Below are positions 14,102 to 25,680 of a DNA stretch of 64,000 nt, one piece after another. The DNA comes from a virus (taxonomy: Duplodnaviria; Caudoviricetes): the IMG/VR virus record IMGVR_UViG_3300029305_011953, positions 9,990 to 73,989 of that record; one strand, 5' to 3'. The position numbers and the translations under genes are program-made. Within the stretch, counting starts at the first letter, position 1. Every line of letters starts with the position of its first letter. The notes under the pieces are model-generated. The model worked only from the letters and a program-made list of their open reading frames with translations, had not been told where the DNA came from and did not search any database.

Positions 14102-14638
14102 GTGGCAAAAGACGGAACAATGCGAGGTGGCGCTCGTATCGGTGCAGGCAAGAAACCAAAGGCTCTGCACGAAAAAATCGCCGAGGGAAAAGACGATGGT
14201 GCAATGGTGCTGCCGAACCCTATTGATTTGGACGGAGTTGACGTTCCGCCCGTGAAAGAATATTTGAAAGCCACCCAGAAAAACGGAAAGGCGATGTGCG
14301 CCGAGGAAGTGTACAAGGAAATCTATCTGTGGCTGAAACAAAGACGGTGTGAAAAGCTCGTCAGCAAGCAACTCATCGAGCAGTACGCAATGAGCGTTTC
14401 TCGTTGGGTGCAATGTGAAGAAGCGATTTCCGAATATGGTTTCCTTGCGAAACACCCCACGACAGGGAACGCAATCGCAAGTCCGTATGTGGCGATGAGC
14501 CAACAGTATATGAAGCAGTCGAACCAAATCTGGTATCAAATCTTCCAGGTAGTAAAAGAGAACTGCTCGGTGGATTATGGTGGCAGTCCGCACGACGATA
14601 TGATGGAAAAATTACTCGCATCAAGGCGAGGAAAATAA
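14102..14638 (+). CDS. Terminase small subunit (P27 family)
   Basis: MAKDGTMRGGARIGAGKKPK, LIEQYAMSVSRWVQCEE, KHPTTGNAIASPYV; RBS GAAGGAGG. Confidence 0.88.
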   Translation: MAKDGTMRGGARIGAGKKPKALHEKIAEGKDDGAMVLPNPIDLDGVDVPPVKEYLKATQKNGKAMCAEEVYKEIYLWLKQRRCEKLVSKQLIEQYAMSVSRWVQCEEAISEYGFLAKHPTTGNAIASPYVAMSQQYMKQSNQIWYQIFQVVKENCSVDYGGSPHDDMMEKLLASRRGK

Positions 14639-14654
14639 AGGAGAGATACGAAAA

Positions 14655-15689
14655 ATGAGACTTTTTTCTACGGAACAAGTCAGCAAGTATCATCCCGATA
14701 AATATGCAGACCAAATTTCGGATGCGATTTTGACGGCTTGCTTGCGCCAAGACAAAGACAGCCATTGTGGAATTGAAACGATGGTCAAGGACAACACGGT
14801 CGTTCTCGGTGGCGAGATTACGACCAAGGCAAAAATCGACGTTGAGCAGATTGTAAAGCAAGTTGCTGCCAAGCTCGGCTATACGGTGGATAAGGTTATA
14901 AACCTTATCGGTCAGCAATCGCCGCAAATCAATAACGCGGTATCCTCGGTGGAAGAAATCGGTGCGGGAGACCAAGGCACGATGTTTGGGTATGCTACAG
15001 CAGAAACATCAAGCAGACTTCCGTTTGGTTTTGACCTTGCGAATAAAATCATCAAGGCGATTGAAACGGACGTGGAGACGAACCCCGATACGATTTTTAA
15101 GGGCGATGCAAAAACGCAGGTAGTCGTTGACCTTGACAAAGAGCCGACCTTTGAATCGGTAAAAAGTATCCTCGTTTCGGCTTGCCATAAAGAGGGAATT
15201 GCTCTTGATGTCGTAAAATGCCGAATTAGGGCGTTAATTGCCGAAATTTGGGACGATACCGAACTCCCCGAACTGATTATCAATCCGTCGGGAGCGTGGA
15301 CAATTGGCGGTGCTACGGCGGATTGCGGTTTGACGGGTAGAAAGATTGTTTGCGACCAATACGGTGGCTACTGTGCTGTCGGCGGCGGTGCTTTCTCTGG
15401 CAAAGACCCGACGAAGGTTGACCGTTCGGCGAGTTATATTGCGAGAAAAATTGCTGTTGACTTGCTCGAAGCGTATGACCTTAAGTGGTGCGAAGTACAG
15501 CTTGGTTATGCAATCGGCATCGCAGAACCCATTTCCGTTTGCGTAAAAAACGACAAAGGGTTTGACCTTTCCGACGAAGTAAGAAAATATTATTCGTTGA
15601 CCCCTCGTGGAATTATCGAAGAACTCGGTCTTTTAGAAAAGGACTACGAGAAGATTGCGGAAGGGTGTCATTATAGGGAAAAATTCTAA
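14655..15689 (+). CDS. metK: Phage-encoded S-adenosylmethionine synthetase (compact, divergent)
   Basis: HPDKYADQISDAI, GAGDQG, GDAKTQV, GLTGRKI, GGGAFSGKDPTKVDRS. Confidence 0.92.
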   Translation: MRLFSTEQVSKYHPDKYADQISDAILTACLRQDKDSHCGIETMVKDNTVVLGGEITTKAKIDVEQIVKQVAAKLGYTVDKVINLIGQQSPQINNAVSSVEEIGAGDQGTMFGYATAETSSRLPFGFDLANKIIKAIETDVETNPDTIFKGDAKTQVVVDLDKEPTFESVKSILVSACHKEGIALDVVKCRIRALIAEIWDDTELPELIINPSGAWTIGGATADCGLTGRKIVCDQYGGYCAVGGGAFSGKDPTKVDRSASYIARKIAVDLLEAYDLKWCEVQLGYAIGIAEPISVCVKNDKGFDLSDEVRKYYSLTPRGIIEELGLLEKDYEKIAEGCHYREKF

Positions 15690-15717
15690 ATTTTCCTAAA
15701 AATTTTATTAAAAACGT

Positions 15718-15746
15718 TTGACAAGATAAAAAAATGTGGATATAAT
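15718..15746 (+). promoter_or_regulatory. Perfect-consensus sigma-A promoter of the nucleotidyltransferase moron
   Basis: TTGACA (15718-15723)-17 bp-TATAAT (15741-15746). Confidence 0.9.
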
Positions 15747-15806
15747 ACTATGATTTAGTGCAGAAAGTGCTAAATGGGTGGCTTGGGAAACAAGGAGTTT
15801 TGTATT

Positions 15807-16457
15807 ATGTACCACTATATCGAAGACAAAGAATTTTTGAAGAGAATGCGTAGCCTGTGCGCCGACATTATTAACCAGTTGGTTCAAAAAATCAACAGGG
15901 AAGGAAAAATGACGGTTGAAGCTCACCTTGTTGGTAGCGGGGCGAGAAATATGGAAACGCAAAATGCCAATCAACCCGTTGACCTTGACTATAACCTTTG
16001 GGTCTATAAGTGCGATGATATAAATGATTGTCGTGCAATCAAAGAATACGTGAGAAAAACTTTCAATAAGGTGTTGAAAGCAAATGGTTGGTCTGACTGC
16101 GAGGATTCAACTTCTTCCTTAACGACGGAAAGAAGACACTTCACGAAAGGAAATCAAACGGAATTTAGTATCGACCTTGCTATTGTTGCAGAAGGGCGCA
16201 CAGACAACTGGTATCGACTTATCCATAAGAAGACGGGATATGTGCAGAGGGATGAATATTGGTGGCAAGAAGCACCACATTCCGATGGGCTGCGAGATAA
16301 GGTTGACGATTTAAAAGACAATGATTTGTGGCTTGAGGTTCGTCAAACCTATCTCGACAAGAAAAATATGTATTTGAGAAGGCAGGATAAAAACCATCCT
16401 TCTTTCAACGTGTACATAGAATCGGTAAATGAAGTTTACTATAAGCATTTTAGATAA
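15807..16457 (+). CDS. Stand-alone Pol-beta-superfamily nucleotidyltransferase (cGAS/DncV-like, SMODS-like)
   Basis: hGS-x13-DhD motif (HLVGSGARNMETQNANQPVDLDY) plus third acidic strand FSIDLAIV; RBS AAGGAG 9 nt before ATG 15807. Confidence 0.75.
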   Translation: MYHYIEDKEFLKRMRSLCADIINQLVQKINREGKMTVEAHLVGSGARNMETQNANQPVDLDYNLWVYKCDDINDCRAIKEYVRKTFNKVLKANGWSDCEDSTSSLTTERRHFTKGNQTEFSIDLAIVAEGRTDNWYRLIHKKTGYVQRDEYWWQEAPHSDGLRDKVDDLKDNDLWLEVRQTYLDKKNMYLRRQDKNHPSFNVYIESVNEVYYKHFR

Positions 16458-16474
16458 AAATAAATAATTGACGG

Positions 16475-16503
16475 AACCGTCCTGTAAAAGGGGCGGTTTT
16501 TTC
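16475..16503 (+). terminator. Intrinsic terminator closing the nucleotidyltransferase moron
   Basis: AACCGTCCT-GTAAA-AGGGGCGGTT followed by a T run. Confidence 0.75.
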
Positions 16504-16522
16504 ATGCCAAAAAGGAGGAATA

Positions 16523-17800
16523 ATGGCGAGAACAACGACAGAAATGCAACTGATCGAACTCTCGAAATTGGTCCCGTATGTCAATAACGCACGAACGCAC
16601 TCGGTGGAGCAGATAAACAAACTTCGGTCGAGTCTTCGTGAGTTTGGTTTTATTAACCCAGTCATTATTGACAAGGACTACGGCATCATCGCGGGACACG
16701 GTCGTGTGATTGCAGCGAGAGAAGAAGGTATTGAAAAAGTGCCTTGCGTGTTGGTGGATTATCTCACGGAGGCACAGAAGAAAGCGTACATTTTGGCTGA
16801 CAACCGTATGGCTTTGGATGCAGGATGGGATGAAGAACTTCTGCGTGTGGAAATCGAGGCTTTGCAAGGCGAGAACTTTGACGTTGGTTTGACGGGTTTT
16901 GATGAAAAGGAACTTGCAGACCTCTTCAAAGGGGAAGATAAGGAAATCGAAGATGACGATTTTGACTTAACCGCCGCCCTTGAAAAAGCATCGTTTGTAC
17001 AAAGGGGCGATGTTTGGACGGTGGGACGGCATAGGCTCGTGTGCGGTGATGCGACCAATGCCGACGACGTGAAAACCTTAATGGACGGCAAACGCGCCAA
17101 CCTCATTCTGACAGATCCGCCGTATGGCGTTTCCTTTAAGAGTAAGAGTGGCTTGACTATCCAAAACGACAGTATGAAGGACGATGAGTTCTATCAATTC
17201 TTATATAAAGCCTTCGTGAATATGGCGGAAAATTTAGAGCCAGGCGGTTCTGCTTATGTTTTCCACGCCGACACCGAAGGCTTAAAGTTTAGAAAGGCGT
17301 TTATTGATGCAGGTTTCCACCTTGCCGGTGTTTGCATTTGGGCGAAGAATAGCCTTGTCCTTGGCAGGTCGGATTATCAATGGCAACACGAACCCGTTTT
17401 ATACGGCTTTTTGCAGAACGGCAAGCATAAGTGGTATTCGGATAGAAAGCAGACGACCATTTGGAACTTTAACAAGCCTAAACGCAATGAAAATCATCCC
17501 ACGAGTAAGCCACTTGACTTGCTCGGCTATGCGTTGAAGAACTCTTCGCAGGAAAATGCTATTGTTGTGGATACGTTCGGCGGAAGTGGTTCTACGCTTA
17601 TGGCGTGCGAGGGGATGAATCGTATCTGCTATACCATTGAACTTGACGAAAAGTACGCATCCGTTATTCTTCGTCGATATGTCGAGGATACTGGCAATGC
17701 AGATGGAGTCTTCGTGGTGCGAGATGGTAAGCAAATCCCGTATGCCGACCTTGTAAAAGAAGTGCAAGGCAGAAACAGCAATGCGGATAGCGATAATTGA
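16523..17800 (+). CDS. ParB-N-terminal domain fused to an N4/N6 DNA methyltransferase
   Basis: LVPYVNNARTH and IIAGHGRV (ParB-like); LTDPPYG, HPTSKPLDL and VDTFGGSGST (beta-class amino-methyltransferase). Confidence 0.92.
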   Translation: MARTTTEMQLIELSKLVPYVNNARTHSVEQINKLRSSLREFGFINPVIIDKDYGIIAGHGRVIAAREEGIEKVPCVLVDYLTEAQKKAYILADNRMALDAGWDEELLRVEIEALQGENFDVGLTGFDEKELADLFKGEDKEIEDDDFDLTAALEKASFVQRGDVWTVGRHRLVCGDATNADDVKTLMDGKRANLILTDPPYGVSFKSKSGLTIQNDSMKDDEFYQFLYKAFVNMAENLEPGGSAYVFHADTEGLKFRKAFIDAGFHLAGVCIWAKNSLVLGRSDYQWQHEPVLYGFLQNGKHKWYSDRKQTTIWNFNKPKRNENHPTSKPLDLLGYALKNSSQENAIVVDTFGGSGSTLMACEGMNRICYTIELDEKYASVILRRYVEDTGNADGVFVVRDGKQIPYADLVKEVQGRNSNADSDN

Positions 17801-18872
17801 TGCGGATTTAATCGGTCGTAAAAAACATAGGTTTCCAAATTTGGCGTGTATGAAGATATCCGCTTTTCATAAAAATCAAGGGGACAGCGTAGAACTAAAA
17901 ACAGATTACAACGGTTTATCGGAGTACGACAAAATATATCTGTCAAAGGTATTCACGGACACGGTAGTCCCTAACGAGGTTTTAAGTTTGGAAAATCTTT
18001 CATTCGGCGGGACGGGTTTCTTTTATGATAAAGCACCTCCCTTGCCGGAGGAAGTGGAACATCAAAAGCCAGATTATCACTTGTATGATGCTTGGGTTGA
18101 TGAACAACTTCGTGCCGGTGGTAAAGAGCGCGATTTTTCCTATTACCGTGATTATTCGATAGGTTTCTTAACGAGAGGCTGTTTCCGCAAATGCGAGTTC
18201 TGCGTGAATAGAAATTATAAGCGGGTATTAAAGCACAGCCCCATAGAAGAATTCCTGGATGAAACACGACCGAAAATATGCTTGCTCGACGATAATTTCC
18301 TTGGGTATCCTTGTTGGAAAGAAATGTTGCTTGAATTACAAAGCAGAGGAAAGCCATTCCAGTTCAAACAAGGGTTGGATGAAAGGCTTTTGACCGATGA
18401 GTCGTGTTCCATTTTATTCTGTAGTAAATACGACGGCGATTATATTTTTGCATTCGATAACGTGGCGGACAAGGAAATCATCGAAAGAAAGATTAAACTT
18501 GCACGGAAGTACACGACCGCCGCCTTGAAATTTTATTGTTTCTGCGGTTTCGATCGTGAAGGAAAATGGGATGACGGTTTTTGGCGAGAAGATATTTTTG
18601 ACCTTTTCAAAAGAATAGAAATTCTCGCTTGTTATGGCTGCGTTCCATACGTGATGAGGTACGCTCGATATGTGGAAAGTCCGTATCGAGGGTTGTATAT
18701 TACGATTGCACGGTGGTGCAATCAACCGAATTTTTTCAAAAAGAAAAGTTTGCGTGAATTTGCGGAAGCGAATGGGCGAACAAGTGCTTGTTACAGGTAT
18801 ATGCGTGACTTCGAGAATGCTTTCCCAGAAGTCGCTTTTTATTTGGATATGAAATATTGTCCGTCCAAGTAA
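17781..18872 (+). CDS. Radical SAM protein
   Basis: CxxxCxxC in TRGCFRKCEFC; N-terminal IIDAD...FPNLACMKISAFHKNQGDSV; LLDDNFLG. Confidence 0.8.
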   Translation: MRIAIIDADLIGRKKHRFPNLACMKISAFHKNQGDSVELKTDYNGLSEYDKIYLSKVFTDTVVPNEVLSLENLSFGGTGFFYDKAPPLPEEVEHQKPDYHLYDAWVDEQLRAGGKERDFSYYRDYSIGFLTRGCFRKCEFCVNRNYKRVLKHSPIEEFLDETRPKICLLDDNFLGYPCWKEMLLELQSRGKPFQFKQGLDERLLTDESCSILFCSKYDGDYIFAFDNVADKEIIERKIKLARKYTTAALKFYCFCGFDREGKWDDGFWREDIFDLFKRIEILACYGCVPYVMRYARYVESPYRGLYITIARWCNQPNFFKKKSLREFAEANGRTSACYRYMRDFENAFPEVAFYLDMKYCPSK

Positions 18873-18919
18873 CGGGTTCATATAATTACGAAAGATAAAA
18901 ATTAAAGGATTTACGAAAG

Positions 18920-20926
18920 ATGAATAAAAAACTGACGTTGGGCAGTCTGTTCGACGGGTCGGGTGGATTCCCGTTAGGCGGTCTGCTTGCAGATATTTCT
19001 CCTTTGTGGGCATCCGAGGTCGAGCCTTTTGCTATAAGGGTTACGACCAAGCGGATGCCTTTTGTCAAACATTACGGCGATATTTCCCAAATGGACGGCG
19101 GGAAAATCGAACCCGTGGATATAATCACGTTTGGTAGCCCCTGTCAAGATATGAGCGTTGCGGGAAAGCGTAGCGGTCTTGACGGGAGTCGTTCGTGCTT
19201 GTTTTACGAAGCTGTCCGAATTATTAAAGAAATGAGGAGTGCAACGAATGGAAAATATCCAAGATATGTCGTTTGGGAAAATGTCCCAGGCGCATTCTCA
19301 AGCAACGGAGGCAAAGACTTCAAAGCGGTGCTTGACTCGCTCGTCAGCATCGTCGAAGAGACAGCCGAAGTGCCTTTTCCTGAAAAAGGGGAATGGGCAT
19401 ACGCCGACTGCTACATGGGAGACGGATGGAGCCTTGCTTACCGAGTTCTCGACGCTCAATATTGGGGAGTCCCCCAACGACGTCGTAGAATCTACCTTGT
19501 CGCAGATTTTGGAGGTAGGAGTGCCTGCGATGTATTATTTAAGTCCGAAGGCTTGTCAAGGTATTCTGCGGAGGGCTTCCGTGCGTGGCAAAGAACTGCC
19601 AATCATACTCAAGAACGCTTTGGAACGCCAGGCGTTGGGTTCGATGGATACAACGGAAGCGTAGACGAAAAGGCAGCAACGCTCGGTGTGAATTGCGGAA
19701 TGTCCACAGGCAGGAACGGAGTTGTCCTTAACGACCAAGGCGGAAACAGAATGGACGTAACGGAAGAAGTTACTTGCACCTTAAGAGCGCAAGCACATCA
19801 TCCGCCTGTGGTTATGGATGTCTTTGACAACCACGGAAAGGATGTCCGCTATACGGGGCCTATTGAAATTGCGCCTACGATTTCTGCAACCTATGGAACG
19901 GGAGGGAACAATCAACCGTTTGTCGTGGGTAAGAGTTGGGATGGCAGAGAAGTTTCGCCGACCTTAACCAAGCAAAATGCAGGTGGCAATCAACGAATGC
20001 CCGACAAGGACAATTTTAACTGCGTTCTTCAACCTTACGGTATTTCCGCAAAGGATAGTAATGCAATGAAATCAAGCAATCCCCATAGCGGTATTTACGC
20101 AGCAAAGACATCTCGAACTCTTGACGGCAATGGCGGAAATCCCGCTTGTAATCAAGGTGGTATCGCTGTGGTATGCGTCGACCAAGGTGGCGGAAAGTCC
20201 GCTTGCAACGTGACGGTTGAGAAAACACCAACACTCACTTGCACGCACGGGGGCGAGCCTGCGGTTTGCGTAGAAACTCCCAAAGAAGGTAAAGACCCTG
20301 TATATGCGATGACAACGGGAAGTTATCAACAGGTGGAAGAAGGGCGTTCGCCGACATTAATGGCAAGGGACTACAAAGACCCGAACGCTGTTTGTTACGG
20401 AATAGGCAGAGACACCTTTAACCAAGGAAAGAATGCCAAGTTCTCGCCGACCTTTGAAAAGGAACTTCAACCCACGATGGTCGCAAAGGGGCCTGGGGCA
20501 ATTGCGTATGGGTTCGACCAATGTGCGGACAGGGATGTTGGGGCGTTATTCCTTGAAGAGAAATCAAAAACGCTCACGAACGGCACTTGTCCTGGCTATC
20601 ACAACAGCGTATGCAAAACAGATTATACGGTACGAAGATTAACCCCCGTTGAATGCGCAAGATTGCAGGGTTTCCCCGATTGGTGGTGTCAAAACCTTGA
20701 AACGGAAAAACCGACGGACGAGGATGTATATTATTGGTATAAGGTTTTCGAGACGTATCGTAAACTGACTGGCGAAGGAAAGCCGAAGACCGATAAGCAA
20801 ATCCGCAAGTGGTTGAACTCGCCGCATTCCGATTCCGCAGAGTATAAACTTTGGGGGAACGGCGTGGCTTTACCGTGCGTATTTTTTGTACTTTCGGGCA
20901 TTGAATATTACGCAAAAAAATCTTAA
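18920..20926 (+). CDS. C5-cytosine DNA methyltransferase with a long modular variable region
   Basis: Motif I LFDGSGG, IV FGSPCQD, VI ENVPG, VIII QRRRRI, IX RRLTPVECARLQGFP, X YKLWGNGV. Confidence 0.95.
   Translation: MNKKLTLGSLFDGSGGFPLGGLLADISPLWASEVEPFAIRVTTKRMPFVKHYGDISQMDGGKIEPVDIITFGSPCQDMSVAGKRSGLDGSRSCLFYEAVRIIKEMRSATNGKYPRYVVWENVPGAFSSNGGKDFKAVLDSLVSIVEETAEVPFPEKGEWAYADCYMGDGWSLAYRVLDAQYWGVPQRRRRIYLVADFGGRSACDVLFKSEGLSRYSAEGFRAWQRTANHTQERFGTPGVGFDGYNGSVDEKAATLGVNCGMSTGRNGVVLNDQGGNRMDVTEEVTCTLRAQAHHPPVVMDVFDNHGKDVRYTGPIEIAPTISATYGTGGNNQPFVVGKSWDGREVSPTLTKQNAGGNQRMPDKDNFNCVLQPYGISAKDSNAMKSSNPHSGIYAAKTSRTLDGNGGNPACNQGGIAVVCVDQGGGKSACNVTVEKTPTLTCTHGGEPAVCVETPKEGKDPVYAMTTGSYQQVEEGRSPTLMARDYKDPNAVCYGIGRDTFNQGKNAKFSPTFEKELQPTMVAKGPGAIAYGFDQCADRDVGALFLEEKSKTLTNGTCPGYHNSVCKTDYTVRRLTPVECARLQGFPDWWCQNLETEKPTDEDVYYWYKVFETYRKLTGEGKPKTDKQIRKWLNSPHSDSAEYKLWGNGVALPCVFFVLSGIEYYAKKS
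19248..19664 (+). CDS. Overprinted +1-frame ORF inside the C5 methylase (M.EcoHK31I beta-polypeptide-like)
   Basis: GAGGAG (19234-19239) 8 nt before ATG 19248; 138 codons without a stop; contains STLSQILE...YYLSPKACQGILRRASVRGKELPIILKNALERQA. Confidence 0.65.
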   Translation: MENIQDMSFGKMSQAHSQATEAKTSKRCLTRSSASSKRQPKCLFLKKGNGHTPTATWETDGALLTEFSTLNIGESPNDVVESTLSQILEVGVPAMYYLSPKACQGILRRASVRGKELPIILKNALERQALGSMDTTEA

Positions 20927-20932
20927 AAAAGT

Positions 20933-21030
20933 GTATCAAAATTAAATAAAAAATTATCAAATTATCGCCCAAATTCGCTGGATATAATTCCGTTTTAGAG
21001 GTAATATACCCATACAAAAATCAAAGGAGG
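20933..21030 (+). promoter_or_regulatory. Conserved moron promoter/leader, copy 1 of 3
   Basis: GTATCAAA...ATCGCCCAAATTCGCTGGATA...TTTTAGAGGTAATATAC.CATAC followed by an RBS; near-identical at 22335-22430, core repeated at 42748-42805. Confidence 0.75.
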
Positions 21031-21040
21031 GCGATTGCCT

Positions 21041-21952
21041 ATGAAGATTCATTTCAATATAAGCAGACAGAGCGAAAGAGAACGCTTTGTCGAAGAAATA
21101 ACCAGATGGCTTGGTTATGAGAGAGAAGTAACGGAAGACGGTTTTCTCGTTATTGGTAAGGTTCAAATCGACAAAGAAAACAACCTTATTATTGCCGACG
21201 AGATGGAAGACGAAACGGTGGAGCGTTTACTTCAATTTTTGTACGACGAGGGGTTCGAGAGCGATTTGAGTTATAAATTCGACGATGAACCCCAAGCGGA
21301 CGAAAGTAACGAAGACCCCACCTACGCATTTGAGGATTTCAACTTTGAAGATGTTGATATTACGAAGAATGCAGCCGTGGAAAGAAAGCCTTATGAAAAA
21401 AAGCAAAAGGCAAAAGAAACGGAGGAGCCTACCCAGCCCAAGGCGGTCATAGAACCACCGCAAGAAATAGGATATAGCCTTCCGCCGATCAAAAATGAAA
21501 GCGAGTTTACGAAAAACGAAATAAATCGCAGAAAGGTCTGTGAGTTAAGTGTAACGGAAGCGATATTGCTTGACCTTCGGAACAGGTATAAGGAGGGGAC
21601 GAGAGTGGAGCTTATCAAAATGGACGATAAGCAAGCACCTCCCCTTAAAACGCACGGAACGGTTCGGCACGTAGACGACATAGGAACGATTCATGTTTCT
21701 TGGGACAGCGGTTCATCGCTTGGGGTGGTTTTTGGCGAGGATGATTGCAGACCCCTTGTGACGATGAACGACAGAATTAAAGAACAGATTTTGAAAATCC
21801 GTGCGACGGGTATTACAAATATGTTCGACACCAAGTATGTTCAATGGCTTGCCAACTTCTGCGGATATTTTGAATTGGTTTGTTTTATCGAGGATAATGT
21901 CAGCGATTACGTGAAGTTTATTTGCGAAGGGAGGGTTGGAGATTATGCTTGA
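21041..21952 (+). CDS. Fusion protein: N-terminal phage domain + DUF4314 + DUF5049-like
   Basis: YKEGTRVELIKMDD..APP..GTV.HVDDIGTIHVSWDSGSSL (DUF4314-like) then IKEQILKIRATGITNMFD (DUF5049-like). Confidence 0.75.
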   Translation: MKIHFNISRQSERERFVEEITRWLGYEREVTEDGFLVIGKVQIDKENNLIIADEMEDETVERLLQFLYDEGFESDLSYKFDDEPQADESNEDPTYAFEDFNFEDVDITKNAAVERKPYEKKQKAKETEEPTQPKAVIEPPQEIGYSLPPIKNESEFTKNEINRRKVCELSVTEAILLDLRNRYKEGTRVELIKMDDKQAPPLKTHGTVRHVDDIGTIHVSWDSGSSLGVVFGEDDCRPLVTMNDRIKEQILKIRATGITNMFDTKYVQWLANFCGYFELVCFIEDNVSDYVKFICEGRVGDYA

Positions 21953-22238
21953 GTGGATTACGGTAAAGCTGATGCCCAAGGCTGATGTCATAATTTATCC
22001 CAACGGACGATTTTACTTCACGGGACACGCACAAAAACGGTTAGAATTATATAAAAGTCATTGGCAAATTGTGGAAGATGTGCAAAAGAAACGGCTTGCT
22101 ATGCTTTTCGCTGAATCGGGAAGAGATGCGAGCTTTGGATATACCTGTATTCCGTGCGTTGTAGCAAGGGATTACTTGGGGAAATTTAGATTGCTCCCTC
22201 TGGGGGACAAAGGCTATATTTTAGAGCCGATCGAGTAA
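21945..22238 (+). CDS. Hypothetical protein (moron)
   Basis: Overlaps the previous stop with an RBS; no recognised motif. Confidence 0.55.
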   Translation: MLEWITVKLMPKADVIIYPNGRFYFTGHAQKRLELYKSHWQIVEDVQKKRLAMLFAESGRDASFGYTCIPCVVARDYLGKFRLLPLGDKGYILEPIE

Positions 22239-22334
22239 AAAACGCTTACAGATAGCGGATTCCCAACCGCTAAAACCCCTTTATGGAACAGGGCTGAAAG
22301 GCTCTGTTCCTCGTTATGAAAAAGCGTGATTTTT

Positions 22335-22430
22335 GTATCAAAATTAAATAAATTAATTATCGAATTATCGCCCAAAATCGCTGGATATATATTCGTTTTA
22401 GAGGTAATATACACATACAAAAAACGAAGG
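22335..22430 (+). promoter_or_regulatory. Conserved moron promoter/leader, copy 2 of 3
   Basis: Near-identical to 20933-21030. Confidence 0.75.
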
Positions 22431-22441
22431 AGCGAACAGCT

Positions 22442-22765
22442 ATGAAAAGAAAAATCAAAGTAACAATGGTAAGCAAAGCGGCAAGCGTTATGGATTACAA
22501 CGCACGAGTTGCAAGGGGCGAAGGTACGCAGGTTGAGGTGGTTATCGAAAAGACCATTCGCCTTTCCTTCACGAACTACACGATTTTCGGGGCGAGATTG
22601 CTTGACGAACAGAACTTCATCAGAAACAACCAAGACCTTATGAAAGTGGACGAAGACGGCGTTTGGCACGTAATCAGGGTTACTTGCAAGGACTCGAACC
22701 TTTCGATTTTGGTAAATGCGGAAGGCTACGATTACGCAAGATACTCGGCAACGATTAGAAAGTAA
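22442..22765 (+). CDS. DUF6329-like hypothetical protein
   Basis: LLDEQNFIRNN.DLM.VDEDGVWH..RV....SILVNAEGYDYARYSA pattern. Confidence 0.7.
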   Translation: MKRKIKVTMVSKAASVMDYNARVARGEGTQVEVVIEKTIRLSFTNYTIFGARLLDEQNFIRNNQDLMKVDEDGVWHVIRVTCKDSNLSILVNAEGYDYARYSATIRK

Positions 22766-22776
22766 GGGGGTAGGCT

Positions 22777-23262
22777 ATGAACAGAGAAGAATTGATTACC
22801 TTTATGCTTGGGACAGGCGAATATTCCACGGTCAAGGAAGCGGACAGAGCCATTATGAATAAAATGGCGGAGTTGAAAAGGTCGGGGATGAGCCAAAAGA
22901 ACGCTTGGGAAAGTATGGTTGAATTTATGGAGCTGACCCTTACGCCAAAGACGGATTTGTTTGAAACGAGAGAGCAAGCAATGCAAGGCTGCCTTGCGGA
23001 GAGCGATGTTTGCGCTCGGTTTTCCGAAAAGGCAATAGAACTTTTCCGCCAAGGGAAAATCAAGGAAGGGTTTGAGTGGTACGAGCTTGCGAAAACGGCA
23101 AGCGTATGTGCAATGCAAGCGCACGAAGCCTTGTGGAAAATGGCAAAAGGTGAGTTGACCGAAGACGAGCAGAGAGCCTTTGAAACGGTAGAAAATGCGG
23201 TCGGGAAACTTTTCACGGCAAGGTTCGTTTTGAAAGAAGAATCGAAAAAGGTAGGGTTTTGA
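22777..23262 (+). CDS. Hypothetical helical protein (moron)
   Basis: RBS AAGGGGGT, operonic; no motif recognised. Confidence 0.65.
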   Translation: MNREELITFMLGTGEYSTVKEADRAIMNKMAELKRSGMSQKNAWESMVEFMELTLTPKTDLFETREQAMQGCLAESDVCARFSEKAIELFRQGKIKEGFEWYELAKTASVCAMQAHEALWKMAKGELTEDEQRAFETVENAVGKLFTARFVLKEESKKVGF

Positions 23263-23264
23263 GT

Positions 23265-23489
23265 ATGTGGCTTAACGGAAATCTTACGGTGGACGGAATC
23301 GAATACGAGTATTGGATTAAGGTATACGAAGAACCTTCTTCATTTGGGATTAACGACGGTCGCATTTCAAAACTTTCCCTTTATCGCGGTAAGGTGGAAG
23401 TAGCGAGTTATGACCGTGGTTGGGACAGACGAGCGAAAGACCCCACGGACAAAAAAGCACTCAAACAGATTTTGAATGACAAAAATTGA
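23265..23489 (+). CDS. Small conserved phage protein
   Basis: YEYWIKVYEEPSSFGINDGRISKL...ASYDRGWD pattern seen in clostridial phage morons. Confidence 0.7.
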   Translation: MWLNGNLTVDGIEYEYWIKVYEEPSSFGINDGRISKLSLYRGKVEVASYDRGWDRRAKDPTDKKALKQILNDKN

Positions 23490-23506
23490 CAAAGGAGAGA
23501 AAAACA

Positions 23507-23998
23507 ATGGCAAAAATTTATGGGTTTACTTTGAAAGGGATAGTTAGTTATCCCGACACGGACGGTATAACCGTTCACGCAAACATTTATTACGGCGCAA
23601 AGCGTGTAGGCACGTACACGGATCGAGGTGACGGTTCATATTTCCCCATTATCGATTTTGATGGGGATTTCCAAAAGCGGAAGGAAATGGAAGAACTGCT
23701 TGCGGAAAAGGCAAAGCAATTTTACGAGAGATTCCCTGAAAAACGGGAACTTAAAGAACTTTATTCAGAAGACCAGGAGCTTTTGAATTATCTCGTCGAC
23801 CTTGTGGAAGATGAAAAGGCATATAAAAAGGGAGCGAAAGACGGCTACGGATTTATGTTTTCCTTTGTGAACGAGCAAGGTTATCTGTGCTACATCGGCT
23901 ACCGCACCGAAGAAGAAATGAATAAAGGGTTGGAAAGGCATAAGAACGACCAAATCGTAAAGGTCTACAAAAGCATTTCTGAATTTACGATAGAATAA
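23507..23998 (+). CDS. Hypothetical protein (moron)
   Basis: RBS AAGGAG; followed by a terminator. Confidence 0.65.
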   Translation: MAKIYGFTLKGIVSYPDTDGITVHANIYYGAKRVGTYTDRGDGSYFPIIDFDGDFQKRKEMEELLAEKAKQFYERFPEKRELKELYSEDQELLNYLVDLVEDEKAYKKGAKDGYGFMFSFVNEQGYLCYIGYRTEEEMNKGLERHKNDQIVKVYKSISEFTIE

Positions 23999-24020
23999 AG
24001 GCAAGAAAACAGAATAAGCC

Positions 24021-24054
24021 AAAGGCAGGTATCAAACGATGCTTGCCTTTTTTG
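24021..24054 (+). terminator. Intrinsic terminator ending the moron block
   Basis: AAGGCAGGTATC-AAAC-GATGCTTGCCTT followed by a T run. Confidence 0.7.
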
Positions 24055-24078
24055 TTACAAAAAAAGGGGGGTGGTGTC

Positions 24079-25680
24079 TTGCGAAAGTTGAAAAAATATA
24101 TGCCGACGAAGTTTAAGGCAAAGGACTCCATCTACGATAAAGGGGCGGCGGATTACGCCGTCAATTTTATTGAATGCCTATGCCATACAAAAGGCACATG
24201 GGCAGGGAAGAAGTTTGAACTGATTGATTGGCAAGAGCAGATTATAAGGGATGTGTTTGGTACGCTTAAGCCGAATGGATACCGTCAGTTCAATACGGCG
24301 TATATTGAAATTCCTAAAAAACAAGGGAAGTCCGAACTTGCCGCCGCCGTTGCACTTTTGCTTACGTGCGGTGATGGCGAAGAGAGGGCGGAAGTTTACG
24401 GCTGTGCGGCGGATCGACAGCAAGCATCCATTGTTTTTGAAGTGGCGGCGGATATGGTTCGTATGTGTCCAGCGTTGAACAAGCGAGTAAAAATTCTTAC
24501 GGCAACCAAGCGTATTATTTATCTTCCAACGAACAGCTTTTATCAAGTTCTTTCTGCGGAAGCGTATAGCAAGCACGGTTTTAACATTCACGGTGTTGTT
24601 TTCGACGAGTTGCACACGCAACCAAATCGAAAGCTGTTTGATGTAATGACCAAGGGGTCGGGTGATGCCCGTATGCAACCGTTATACTTTCTGATTACTA
24701 CGGCGGGAACGGACACGCATTCGATTTGCTATGAAACCCACCAAAAGGCAAAGGATATCTTGGAAGGGCGTAAGATAGACCCGACCTTTTATCCTGTGAT
24801 TTATGGTGCGGAGCAAGACGACGATTGGACTGACCCAAAGGTATGGAAAAAAGCAAATCCGTCTCTTGGGATAACGGTAGGGCTTGATAAGGTAAAAGCG
24901 GCGTGTGAATCGGCAAAGCAAAACCCTGCGGAAGAGAACTCTTTCCGTCAACTGCGCCTTAATCAATGGGTTAAGCAAGCGGTGCGTTGGATGCCGATGG
25001 AAAAGTGGGATAAATGTGAAGTGGTTTTTCACGAGGAAGATTTGGAGGGGCGCGTTTGTTACGGTGGTCTTGACTTGTCTTCCACAACCGACATTACGGC
25101 GTTTGTTTTGGTTTTCCCTCCTACGGCGGATGATGAAAAATATTATATTTTGCCGTATTTTTGGATTCCCGAAGAAAATATCCCTTTGCGTGTTAATCGT
25201 GACCATGTCCCGTATGACTTATGGCAAAGGCAGGGAATTTTGGAAACGACCGAGGGCAACGTTGTCCATTACGCCTATATTGAAAAGTTCATCGAAAAAT
25301 TAGGAGAAAGGTTTAATATTCGTGAAATCGCCTTTGACCGATGGGGTGCTGTGCAAATGGTACAGAACCTTGAAGGAATGGGATTCACGGTTGTTCCGTT
25401 TGGGCAGGGATTTAAGGATATGAGTCCGCCGACCAAAGAGTTGATGAAACTCGTACTTGAAGGAAAGCTCGCTCACAGCGGGCATCCTGTTCTTCGGTGG
25501 ATGATGGACAATGTCTGTGCGAGAACTGACCCAGCAGGGAACGTGAAGATGGACAAAGAAAAGTCCACGGAAAAAATCGACGGCGCAGTTGCAACCGTTA
25601 TGGCGTTGGATAGAGCAATACGCTGTGGAAACGATAATTCGGAATCGGTCTACGACAATCGTGGACTGATTTTTATTTAA
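24079..25680 (+). CDS. Terminase large subunit
   Basis: Walker A IPKKQGKSE, Walker B VVFDELH, ITTAG, nuclease GGLDLSSTTD and KIDGAVATVMA; TTG start inferred. Confidence 0.95.
   Translation: MRKLKKYMPTKFKAKDSIYDKGAADYAVNFIECLCHTKGTWAGKKFELIDWQEQIIRDVFGTLKPNGYRQFNTAYIEIPKKQGKSELAAAVALLLTCGDGEERAEVYGCAADRQQASIVFEVAADMVRMCPALNKRVKILTATKRIIYLPTNSFYQVLSAEAYSKHGFNIHGVVFDELHTQPNRKLFDVMTKGSGDARMQPLYFLITTAGTDTHSICYETHQKAKDILEGRKIDPTFYPVIYGAEQDDDWTDPKVWKKANPSLGITVGLDKVKAACESAKQNPAEENSFRQLRLNQWVKQAVRWMPMEKWDKCEVVFHEEDLEGRVCYGGLDLSSTTDITAFVLVFPPTADDEKYYILPYFWIPEENIPLRVNRDHVPYDLWQRQGILETTEGNVVHYAYIEKFIEKLGERFNIREIAFDRWGAVQMVQNLEGMGFTVVPFGQGFKDMSPPTKELMKLVLEGKLAHSGHPVLRWMMDNVCARTDPAGNVKMDKEKSTEKIDGAVATVMALDRAIRCGNDNSESVYDNRGLIFI

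Follow-up and report, generated by a model that had tools for sequence, protein, structure and literature searches.

A conserved +1-frame gene inside a phage C5 cytosine methylase gene, and the segment that its product may supply to the enzyme

Does the gene for a C5 cytosine methylase in a virus of the Caudoviricetes hide a second gene in its +1 frame and, if so, what could the second product add to an enzyme whose main frame already carries all ten motifs? The stretch of DNA analysed, a 64,000-nucleotide portion of a 74-kb provirus record (hereafter the window), holds the methylase gene at 18920..20926 on the plus strand. Its 668-aa product belongs to the C5 cytosine DNA methyltransferases (Pfam PF00145 at E 7e-41), and motifs I (FxGxG), IV (PCQ), VI (ENV, 19274-19291), VII–VIII (19427-19504, with the QRR of motif VIII), IX (20633-20680) and X follow one another in order; against M.HhaI, the main-frame profile aligned over motifs I–VI, VII–VIII and IX. 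Wholly inside this gene, at 19248..19664 on the same strand, lies a +1-frame open reading frame (ORF) of 138 codons plus stop, whose product we call the small chain (P0001, also labelled N-dom).

The methylase gene sits between terS (14102..14638) and terL (24043..25680) in a block spanning 14102..25680, with the order terS, MetK, an unknown gene, a ParB-N6/N4 methylase, an unknown gene, the C5 methylase, a DUF4314/DUF5049 protein and terL. The phage MetK lies at 14655..15689 and the ParB-N6/N4 methylase at 16523..17800, and two genes of the block, at 15774..16457 and at 17781..18872 (363 aa with a CxxCxxC-type cysteine cluster), had no match in Pfam.

The earlier note had reported a 138-codon +1 ORF over motifs VI–VIII with GAGGAG 8 nt before an ATG at 19248, and these coordinates were confirmed. 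Upstream, the +1 frame is closed by a TGA at 19233..19235, which is made by the conserved main-frame codons for Met105–Arg106 (ATG AGG), and from there it stays open as far as the TAG at 19662-19664, extending 160 nt beyond the motifs (53 main-frame codons past motif VIII). The Shine–Dalgarno-like GAGGAG occupies 19234..19239 and the start codon 19248..19250, both on the plus strand, the ATG being made by main-frame Asn110–Gly111 (AAT GGn). When the codons of the window sequence were reshuffled synonymously, the +1 frame remained open in 5.1% of the trials. The +2 frame contains five stops over the same stretch, and five stops are also found in the equivalent +1 stretch of E. coli dcm.

The frequent +1-frame stops in close homologues that the earlier note had named as grounds for abandoning the gene were not seen: of 79 viral homologues (54–72% protein identity), 78 have an open stretch of 134-146 codons at the corresponding position, and so have 78 of 80 loci from GTDB genomes representing species of Clostridia, Bacilli and a small number of other groups, the latter loci being taken from a listing with at least 600 matching stretches. 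The locus search used an alignment (A2) narrower than the broad A1, in which no stretch is conserved. For codon statistics, we retained 39 nonredundant homologues, each below 90% identity. All 39 were open in the +1 frame, the mean chance per sequence being 0.15 by codon reshuffling, and all 39 were also open over the upstream 95 codons of that frame, where the chance was about 0.3 each.

The synonymous sites of the methylase are constrained in the overlap and only there, a check that the earlier note had proposed. At identical residues of the 39 homologues, codon identity was 0.36-0.47 outside the overlap, rose to 0.58-0.85 within residues 101-240 and was 0.43 past residue 260. The diversity of main-frame third positions, normally 0.5-0.65, fell to 0.16-0.18 at residues 201-240, where the most variable position is the first one, that is, the wobble position of the +1 frame, and not the third position as is usual elsewhere. 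The periodicity thus switches to the +1 frame at the place where the main-frame protein is least conserved. In an OLGenie-style count, the alternative-frame dNN/dNS of the C-terminal half of the small chain was 0.26 [0.17-0.39] in comparison with 0.76-0.94 in three control regions, while that of the N-terminal half, 0.67, was not clearly lower than the controls. The rate of changes synonymous in the main frame and nonsynonymous in the +1 frame (dSN) was 0.35 in the C-terminal half and 0.92 in the N-terminal half, against 2.1–2.8 in the two control regions yielding a value. As the dNN/dNS of the N-terminal half does not separate clearly from the controls, the evidence for that half consists of its open frame, its start site and its reduced dSN. 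The most conserved part, the YYLS...GILRRA motif followed by two helices (residues ~96-135, pLDDT 92-96), is encoded at 19533..19652 on the plus strand, and the main-frame third positions are least variable across this interval.

The start site shows a similar signal. ATG is found at the start position in 35 of the 39 homologues and GTG in one more; the Asn110 codon that contributes to the start is AAT in 33 of 33 cases against a 43% background, and the Arg106 codon within the Shine–Dalgarno sequence is AGG in 37 of 39 homologues, whereas only 13% of the arginine codons elsewhere in the same genes are AGG. Both the ATG and the Shine–Dalgarno AGG are kept through synonymous codon choice. With an open frame, a lowered synonymous rate, purifying selection and a conserved start all found, the ORF has the marks of a functional same-strand overlapping gene, and the codon comparison identifies it as a protein-coding gene under purifying selection, strong at residues ~80-130 and moderate on the N-terminal half. 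The central claim of the earlier note, an overprinted gene with its own start, is thereby upheld on the conserved open frame, the synonymous constraint and the choice of start codons.

An explanation in which the ORF is untranslated, and its conservation stems from constraint on the main-frame protein or from a nucleic-acid signal, could appeal to the high conservation that motifs VI–VIII have in themselves and to the open frame being just a 1-in-20 event for a single sequence. We consider it very improbable: the periodicity moves to the +1 frame precisely where the main-frame protein has the least conservation to offer, the alternative-frame dNN/dNS is below the controls in the C-terminal half, the stops of E. 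coli dcm fall at the same place and, as described below, hundreds of relatives read on from the +1 frame into motifs IX–X.

What does the small chain resemble? Neither its sequence nor its profile gave a Pfam family or, by sequence, a relative in the PDB, and the ESM Atlas returned only clusters of "hypothetical protein". Among 1.8 billion cluster representatives, we found 3352 relatives at E<1e-3, many of them ~130-150 aa long and named just "hypothetical protein". A profile comparison with E. coli Dcm was more informative. Using hhalign and the A1 profile, small-chain residues 55-100/112 paired with Dcm 282-326/338 with a score of 30.8 (E 1e-3), a score that none of 300 column-shuffled profiles reached (best shuffle 27.1); the alignment is short, at 45–55 columns and an HH probability of 9–22%, and its score is modest yet above all 300 shuffles. 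Dcm 282-338 is the segment right after motif VIII, and the corresponding residues 55-112 of the small chain are encoded at 19410..19583 on the plus strand. The main-frame profile aligned to Dcm 88-283 and 396-446 with nothing between, and the small-chain match takes over precisely at the end of the main-frame one. The small-chain profile is thus similar to the post-motif-VIII segment, and the main frame is without that segment. A point against reading the small chain as a subunit is that this post-VIII-like segment is encoded on the same nucleotides as motifs VII–VIII. Two other origins were tried and rejected: as a displaced motif IX, the small chain aligned over just six residues (E 0.77), and as an internal duplicate of the main-frame protein it showed no similarity.

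The impression of the earlier note that the product looks folded stood in part. Modeled alone, the small chain was confident only at residues ~95-135, which form two helices, and the remainder was not, the N-terminal half being disordered. The model of a beta-type relative, P0007, had a mean pLDDT of 69, and a wide structural search with it gave no row above Z 5; the best match, itself weak, was to a Dcm-like chain (Z 4.9, rmsd 9.1, 131 aligned), and a weak match to a Dnmt2 (Z 4.3, rmsd 3.3, 80 aligned) was also listed. These matches of a predicted model are consistent with the reading as a methylase segment and too weak to serve as proof.

The relatives indicate how the small chain is placed with respect to the rest of the enzyme. 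In hundreds of longer relatives, the small chain is N-terminal, and a target recognition domain (TRD) and motifs IX and X come after it in the same frame. At one such locus, L082, motifs I–VIII occupy one frame, inside which the +1 frame starts and codes for the small chain joined to the TRD-IX-X module. At L084, a phage locus, and at L083 and L081, the first frame is limited to motifs IV–VIII, and the +1 product runs from the small chain through TRD, IX and X to motifs I–II; by their motif order, these are split and circularly permuted enzymes. Among 160 further viral loci, almost every one with a detected small chain has it in the +1 frame over motif VIII, and the TRD-IX-X module is found on either frame, in permuted and unpermuted genes alike. 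The window has the form in which everything except the small chain is in the main frame, and the small chain stands alone there because the TRD and motifs IX–X are joined to the main frame.

Several features of these relatives merit separate description. The permuted order IV-VI-VIII-TRD-IX-X-I-II, seen at L084 1373..2801, at L083 and L081 and at about 45 of the loci L166–L325, places the new ends between motifs II and IV. A 2018 survey described natural permuted C5 methylases as permuted in the variable region only (PMC5944983), and the II/IV permutation therefore looks like a different natural type. A 721-aa methylase with a 135-codon +1 ORF recurs at identical coordinates at L092–L094, L098, L099, L101, L113, L121–L123 and others, in Heyndrickxia, Robertmurraya, Lysinibacillus, Clostridium, Tissierella and Dehalobacter among many genera, a sequence pattern that suggests one widely transferred element. 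Longer small chains, such as the N-termini of P0018, P0053, P0060 and P0105 and 1845..2321 of L330, start further upstream and open with a conserved Q-x-S/D-L-F peptide, which resembles the tags that bind sliding clamps; the window ORF, its frame closed by the TGA at 19233, is without it.

Two single database proteins, P0093 and P0003, join both frames, and one of them runs from motifs I–VI straight into the C-terminal half of the small chain and then TRD-IX-X, without VII–VIII; these may be genuine variants or may result from errors of assembly or frameshift. Such proteins would be expected if a programmed frameshift after motif VIII fused motifs I–VIII to the helical hairpin and the small chain had no start of its own. 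A shift past motif VIII does give a canonical-looking order, motif VIII and then the YYLS block, and in the split relatives it would produce a complete single chain. We nevertheless judge this mechanism improbable: in the window, the fusion would end at 19664 without TRD, IX or X, the position of the main-frame stop varies among the split relatives, the upstream 95 codons, whose openness a frameshift would not explain, are open in every one of the nonredundant homologues, and the ATG and its Shine–Dalgarno sequence are preserved by codon choice.

Joint modeling of the two chains, another of the checks proposed in the earlier note, predicted a complex with a score of 0.72 (0.74, 0.72 and 0.72 in separate runs), the best of three controls scoring 0.00. 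Of 80 solved complexes, 58 attain the mark used for this score, as do 2 of 110 mismatched pairs; these rates apply only roughly here, since we used our own alignments. The runs had at least 59% of their contacts in common, with a partner pLDDT of at least 60. On the small-chain side, the predicted interface comprises residues 37-47, 55-63, 70-98 and 103-128, and on the main-chain side residues 142-185 and 203-217, corresponding to the VII–VIII hairpin and the tail beyond it, 568-582 in motif IX and 652/656 in motif X. Main-frame residues 142-217 (pre-VII insert, VII–VIII and tail) are encoded at 19343..19570 on the plus strand, so the contact region is largely made of the very nucleotides that encode the small chain; residues 568-582, predicted to contact small-chain residues 86-98, are encoded at 20621..20665 on the same strand. 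The prediction supports binding of the small chain to the methylase, and, if the chain stands in for a canonical segment, the score may come in part from the model filling in a single-chain fold that it already knows.

Taken as a whole, we infer that the small chain is probably a translated and obligatory subunit that gives the methylase its post-motif-VIII segment in trans. Its synthesis would start from its own Shine–Dalgarno sequence and ATG on the methylase mRNA. Residues ~37-98 would then rest on the VII/VIII hairpin in the catalytic domain and extend as far as motif IX. The hairpin of two helices at the C-terminus would pack alongside the main-chain tail beyond motif VIII, and the segment so supplied would stand at the start of the variable region. 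One enzyme fold would in this way be encoded by one piece of DNA read in two frames. The main-chain tail and the small-chain C-terminus would adjoin each other where the TRD begins, so that the TRD could be attached to either chain, and the frame swaps among the relatives fit such a mechanism. On the other hand, a main frame with all ten motifs might work alone, and the translated product could be an accessory factor that regulates, inhibits or times the methylase, or that serves as an adaptor to DNA or the clamp, instead of a structural part of the active enzyme. The completeness of the main frame, the basic C-terminal helices, the weak constraint on the N-terminal half and the clamp-tag-like Q-x-S-L-F peptide at the start of longer relatives are what such a factor would lead one to expect. 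We regard it as unlikely, given that the chain is covalently joined to the sole TRD-IX-X module in the split relatives, matches a segment of canonical methylases that is lacking from the main frame and has its predicted interface on the catalytic core and motif IX. Among the roles offered by the earlier note, a stabilising subunit comes closest to the subunit that we propose; regulatory and inhibitory roles fit poorly because many relatives fuse the chain to the enzyme's only copy of the TRD and IX–X.

Two-chain C5 methylases are already known, including M.EcoHK31I with its alternative-frame beta chain and the split M.AquI. M.EcoHK31I of E. coli, which recognises YGGCCR, is an alpha/beta enzyme in which beta is encoded in another frame inside alpha and carries motif IX, alpha being without it (PMC2836561, PMC3404938). 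The window shares with it a second polypeptide, here a predicted one, from an alternative frame wholly inside the large gene, and two chains thought to make one enzyme. Compared by description, the content differs: the main chain of the window enzyme includes motif IX, and what the small chain resembles is the post-motif-VIII segment. The earlier note had compared the ORF with M.EcoHK31I, and of this likeness the alternative-frame principle holds and the motif IX content does not. Its observation that the second chain is not the source of motif IX was right, as both IX and X are in the main frame. Judging by content, a similarity of the small chain to EcoHK31I beta is unlikely; in principle, the window enzyme is probably two-chain like M.EcoHK31I. 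The latter is also one characterised enzyme, whereas the arrangement of the window type occurs in thousands of genes across several phyla.

M.AquI is a two-subunit C5 methylase naturally split between motif VIII and the distal variable region (PMC3404938, PMC5944983). The window relatives L082 and L084 are split at about the same place, and in both of these relatives motifs I–VIII and IX–X fall on different chains; the window enzyme is unsplit there, its extra chain is a third, small piece, and the small-chain gene overlaps motifs VI–VIII by more than 100 codons. The single-chain enzymes Dcm and M.HhaI match the window main frame in motifs I–VIII and IX–X, and E. coli Dcm matches the small chain at the segment described above, but these enzymes carry that segment in frame after motif VIII, and their +1 frame is full of stops, as counted in dcm. 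Outside methylases, the mammalian dual-coding pair XL-alpha-s/ALEX makes two proteins from the same nucleotides, and its products bind each other (PMC1186735); the interaction in the window is only predicted, and the mammalian proteins are an unrelated pair, whereas the window products would complete one enzyme fold. Our literature searches found no description of the overlap reported here, which is weak evidence of absence. The present analysis adds the stand-alone small chain alongside a main frame with all ten motifs, the post-motif-VIII alignment, the selection statistics, the complex prediction and the case of phage P1.

The distribution of the ORF extends well beyond the window. A tblastn search with the small chain matched 125 phage records together with 525 plasmids (442 of them from E. 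coli), and in the E. coli plasmid rows sampled the match lies inside a methylase gene like dmt of P1. In phage P1 itself, dmt, which has the C5 domain first and the Dam domain second, contains a 162-codon +1 ORF with the same conserved C-terminal motif (L329 2201..2689, equal to NC_005856.1 66713..67201), which the record does not list among its annotated features there. The same +1 relation was found in Mycobacterium phage Dallas, Pasteurella Pm86, Vibrio K459, Pseudomonas TC7, Roseobacter CRP-822 and Streptococcus Javan105. The Dallas locus (L330 1673..2792) looks like a three-piece layout, with a 280-aa chain carrying motifs I–VIII, a stand-alone +1 ORF and a separate downstream 66-aa "DNA methylase" gene. 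The ORF was listed in none of the six records whose annotation we examined, in agreement with the expectation of the earlier note that standard annotation would miss it. In thousands of methylase genes, including P1 dmt and those of Streptococcus Javan phages and many Bacillota prophages, annotation omits a conserved gene of ~135-160 codons.

Recoded methylases serve in studies of phage anti-restriction and in the premethylation of DNA for transformation. If the small chain is needed, codon-optimised or otherwise recoded methylases would fail, since recoding destroys the hidden frame. As P1 carries the ORF, direct testing is possible in a standard laboratory system. It is about an even bet that an ancient clade of phage and mobile-element C5 methylases, P1 Dmt included, is obligately two-frame, such that the +1 chain must bind the part of the enzyme encoded by the overlapping motifs VI–VIII, and that the TRD-IX-X module has moved repeatedly between the frames and the genes have been permuted while the overlap was never lost; were this obligate two-frame reading true, recoded synthetic genes of the whole clade would be inactive. 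The locus presents a rare, long and deeply conserved same-strand overlap in double-stranded DNA phages, the products of which, according to the complex prediction, probably bind each other, and it would be an example of an enzyme fold shared by two reading frames and rejoined in different ways.
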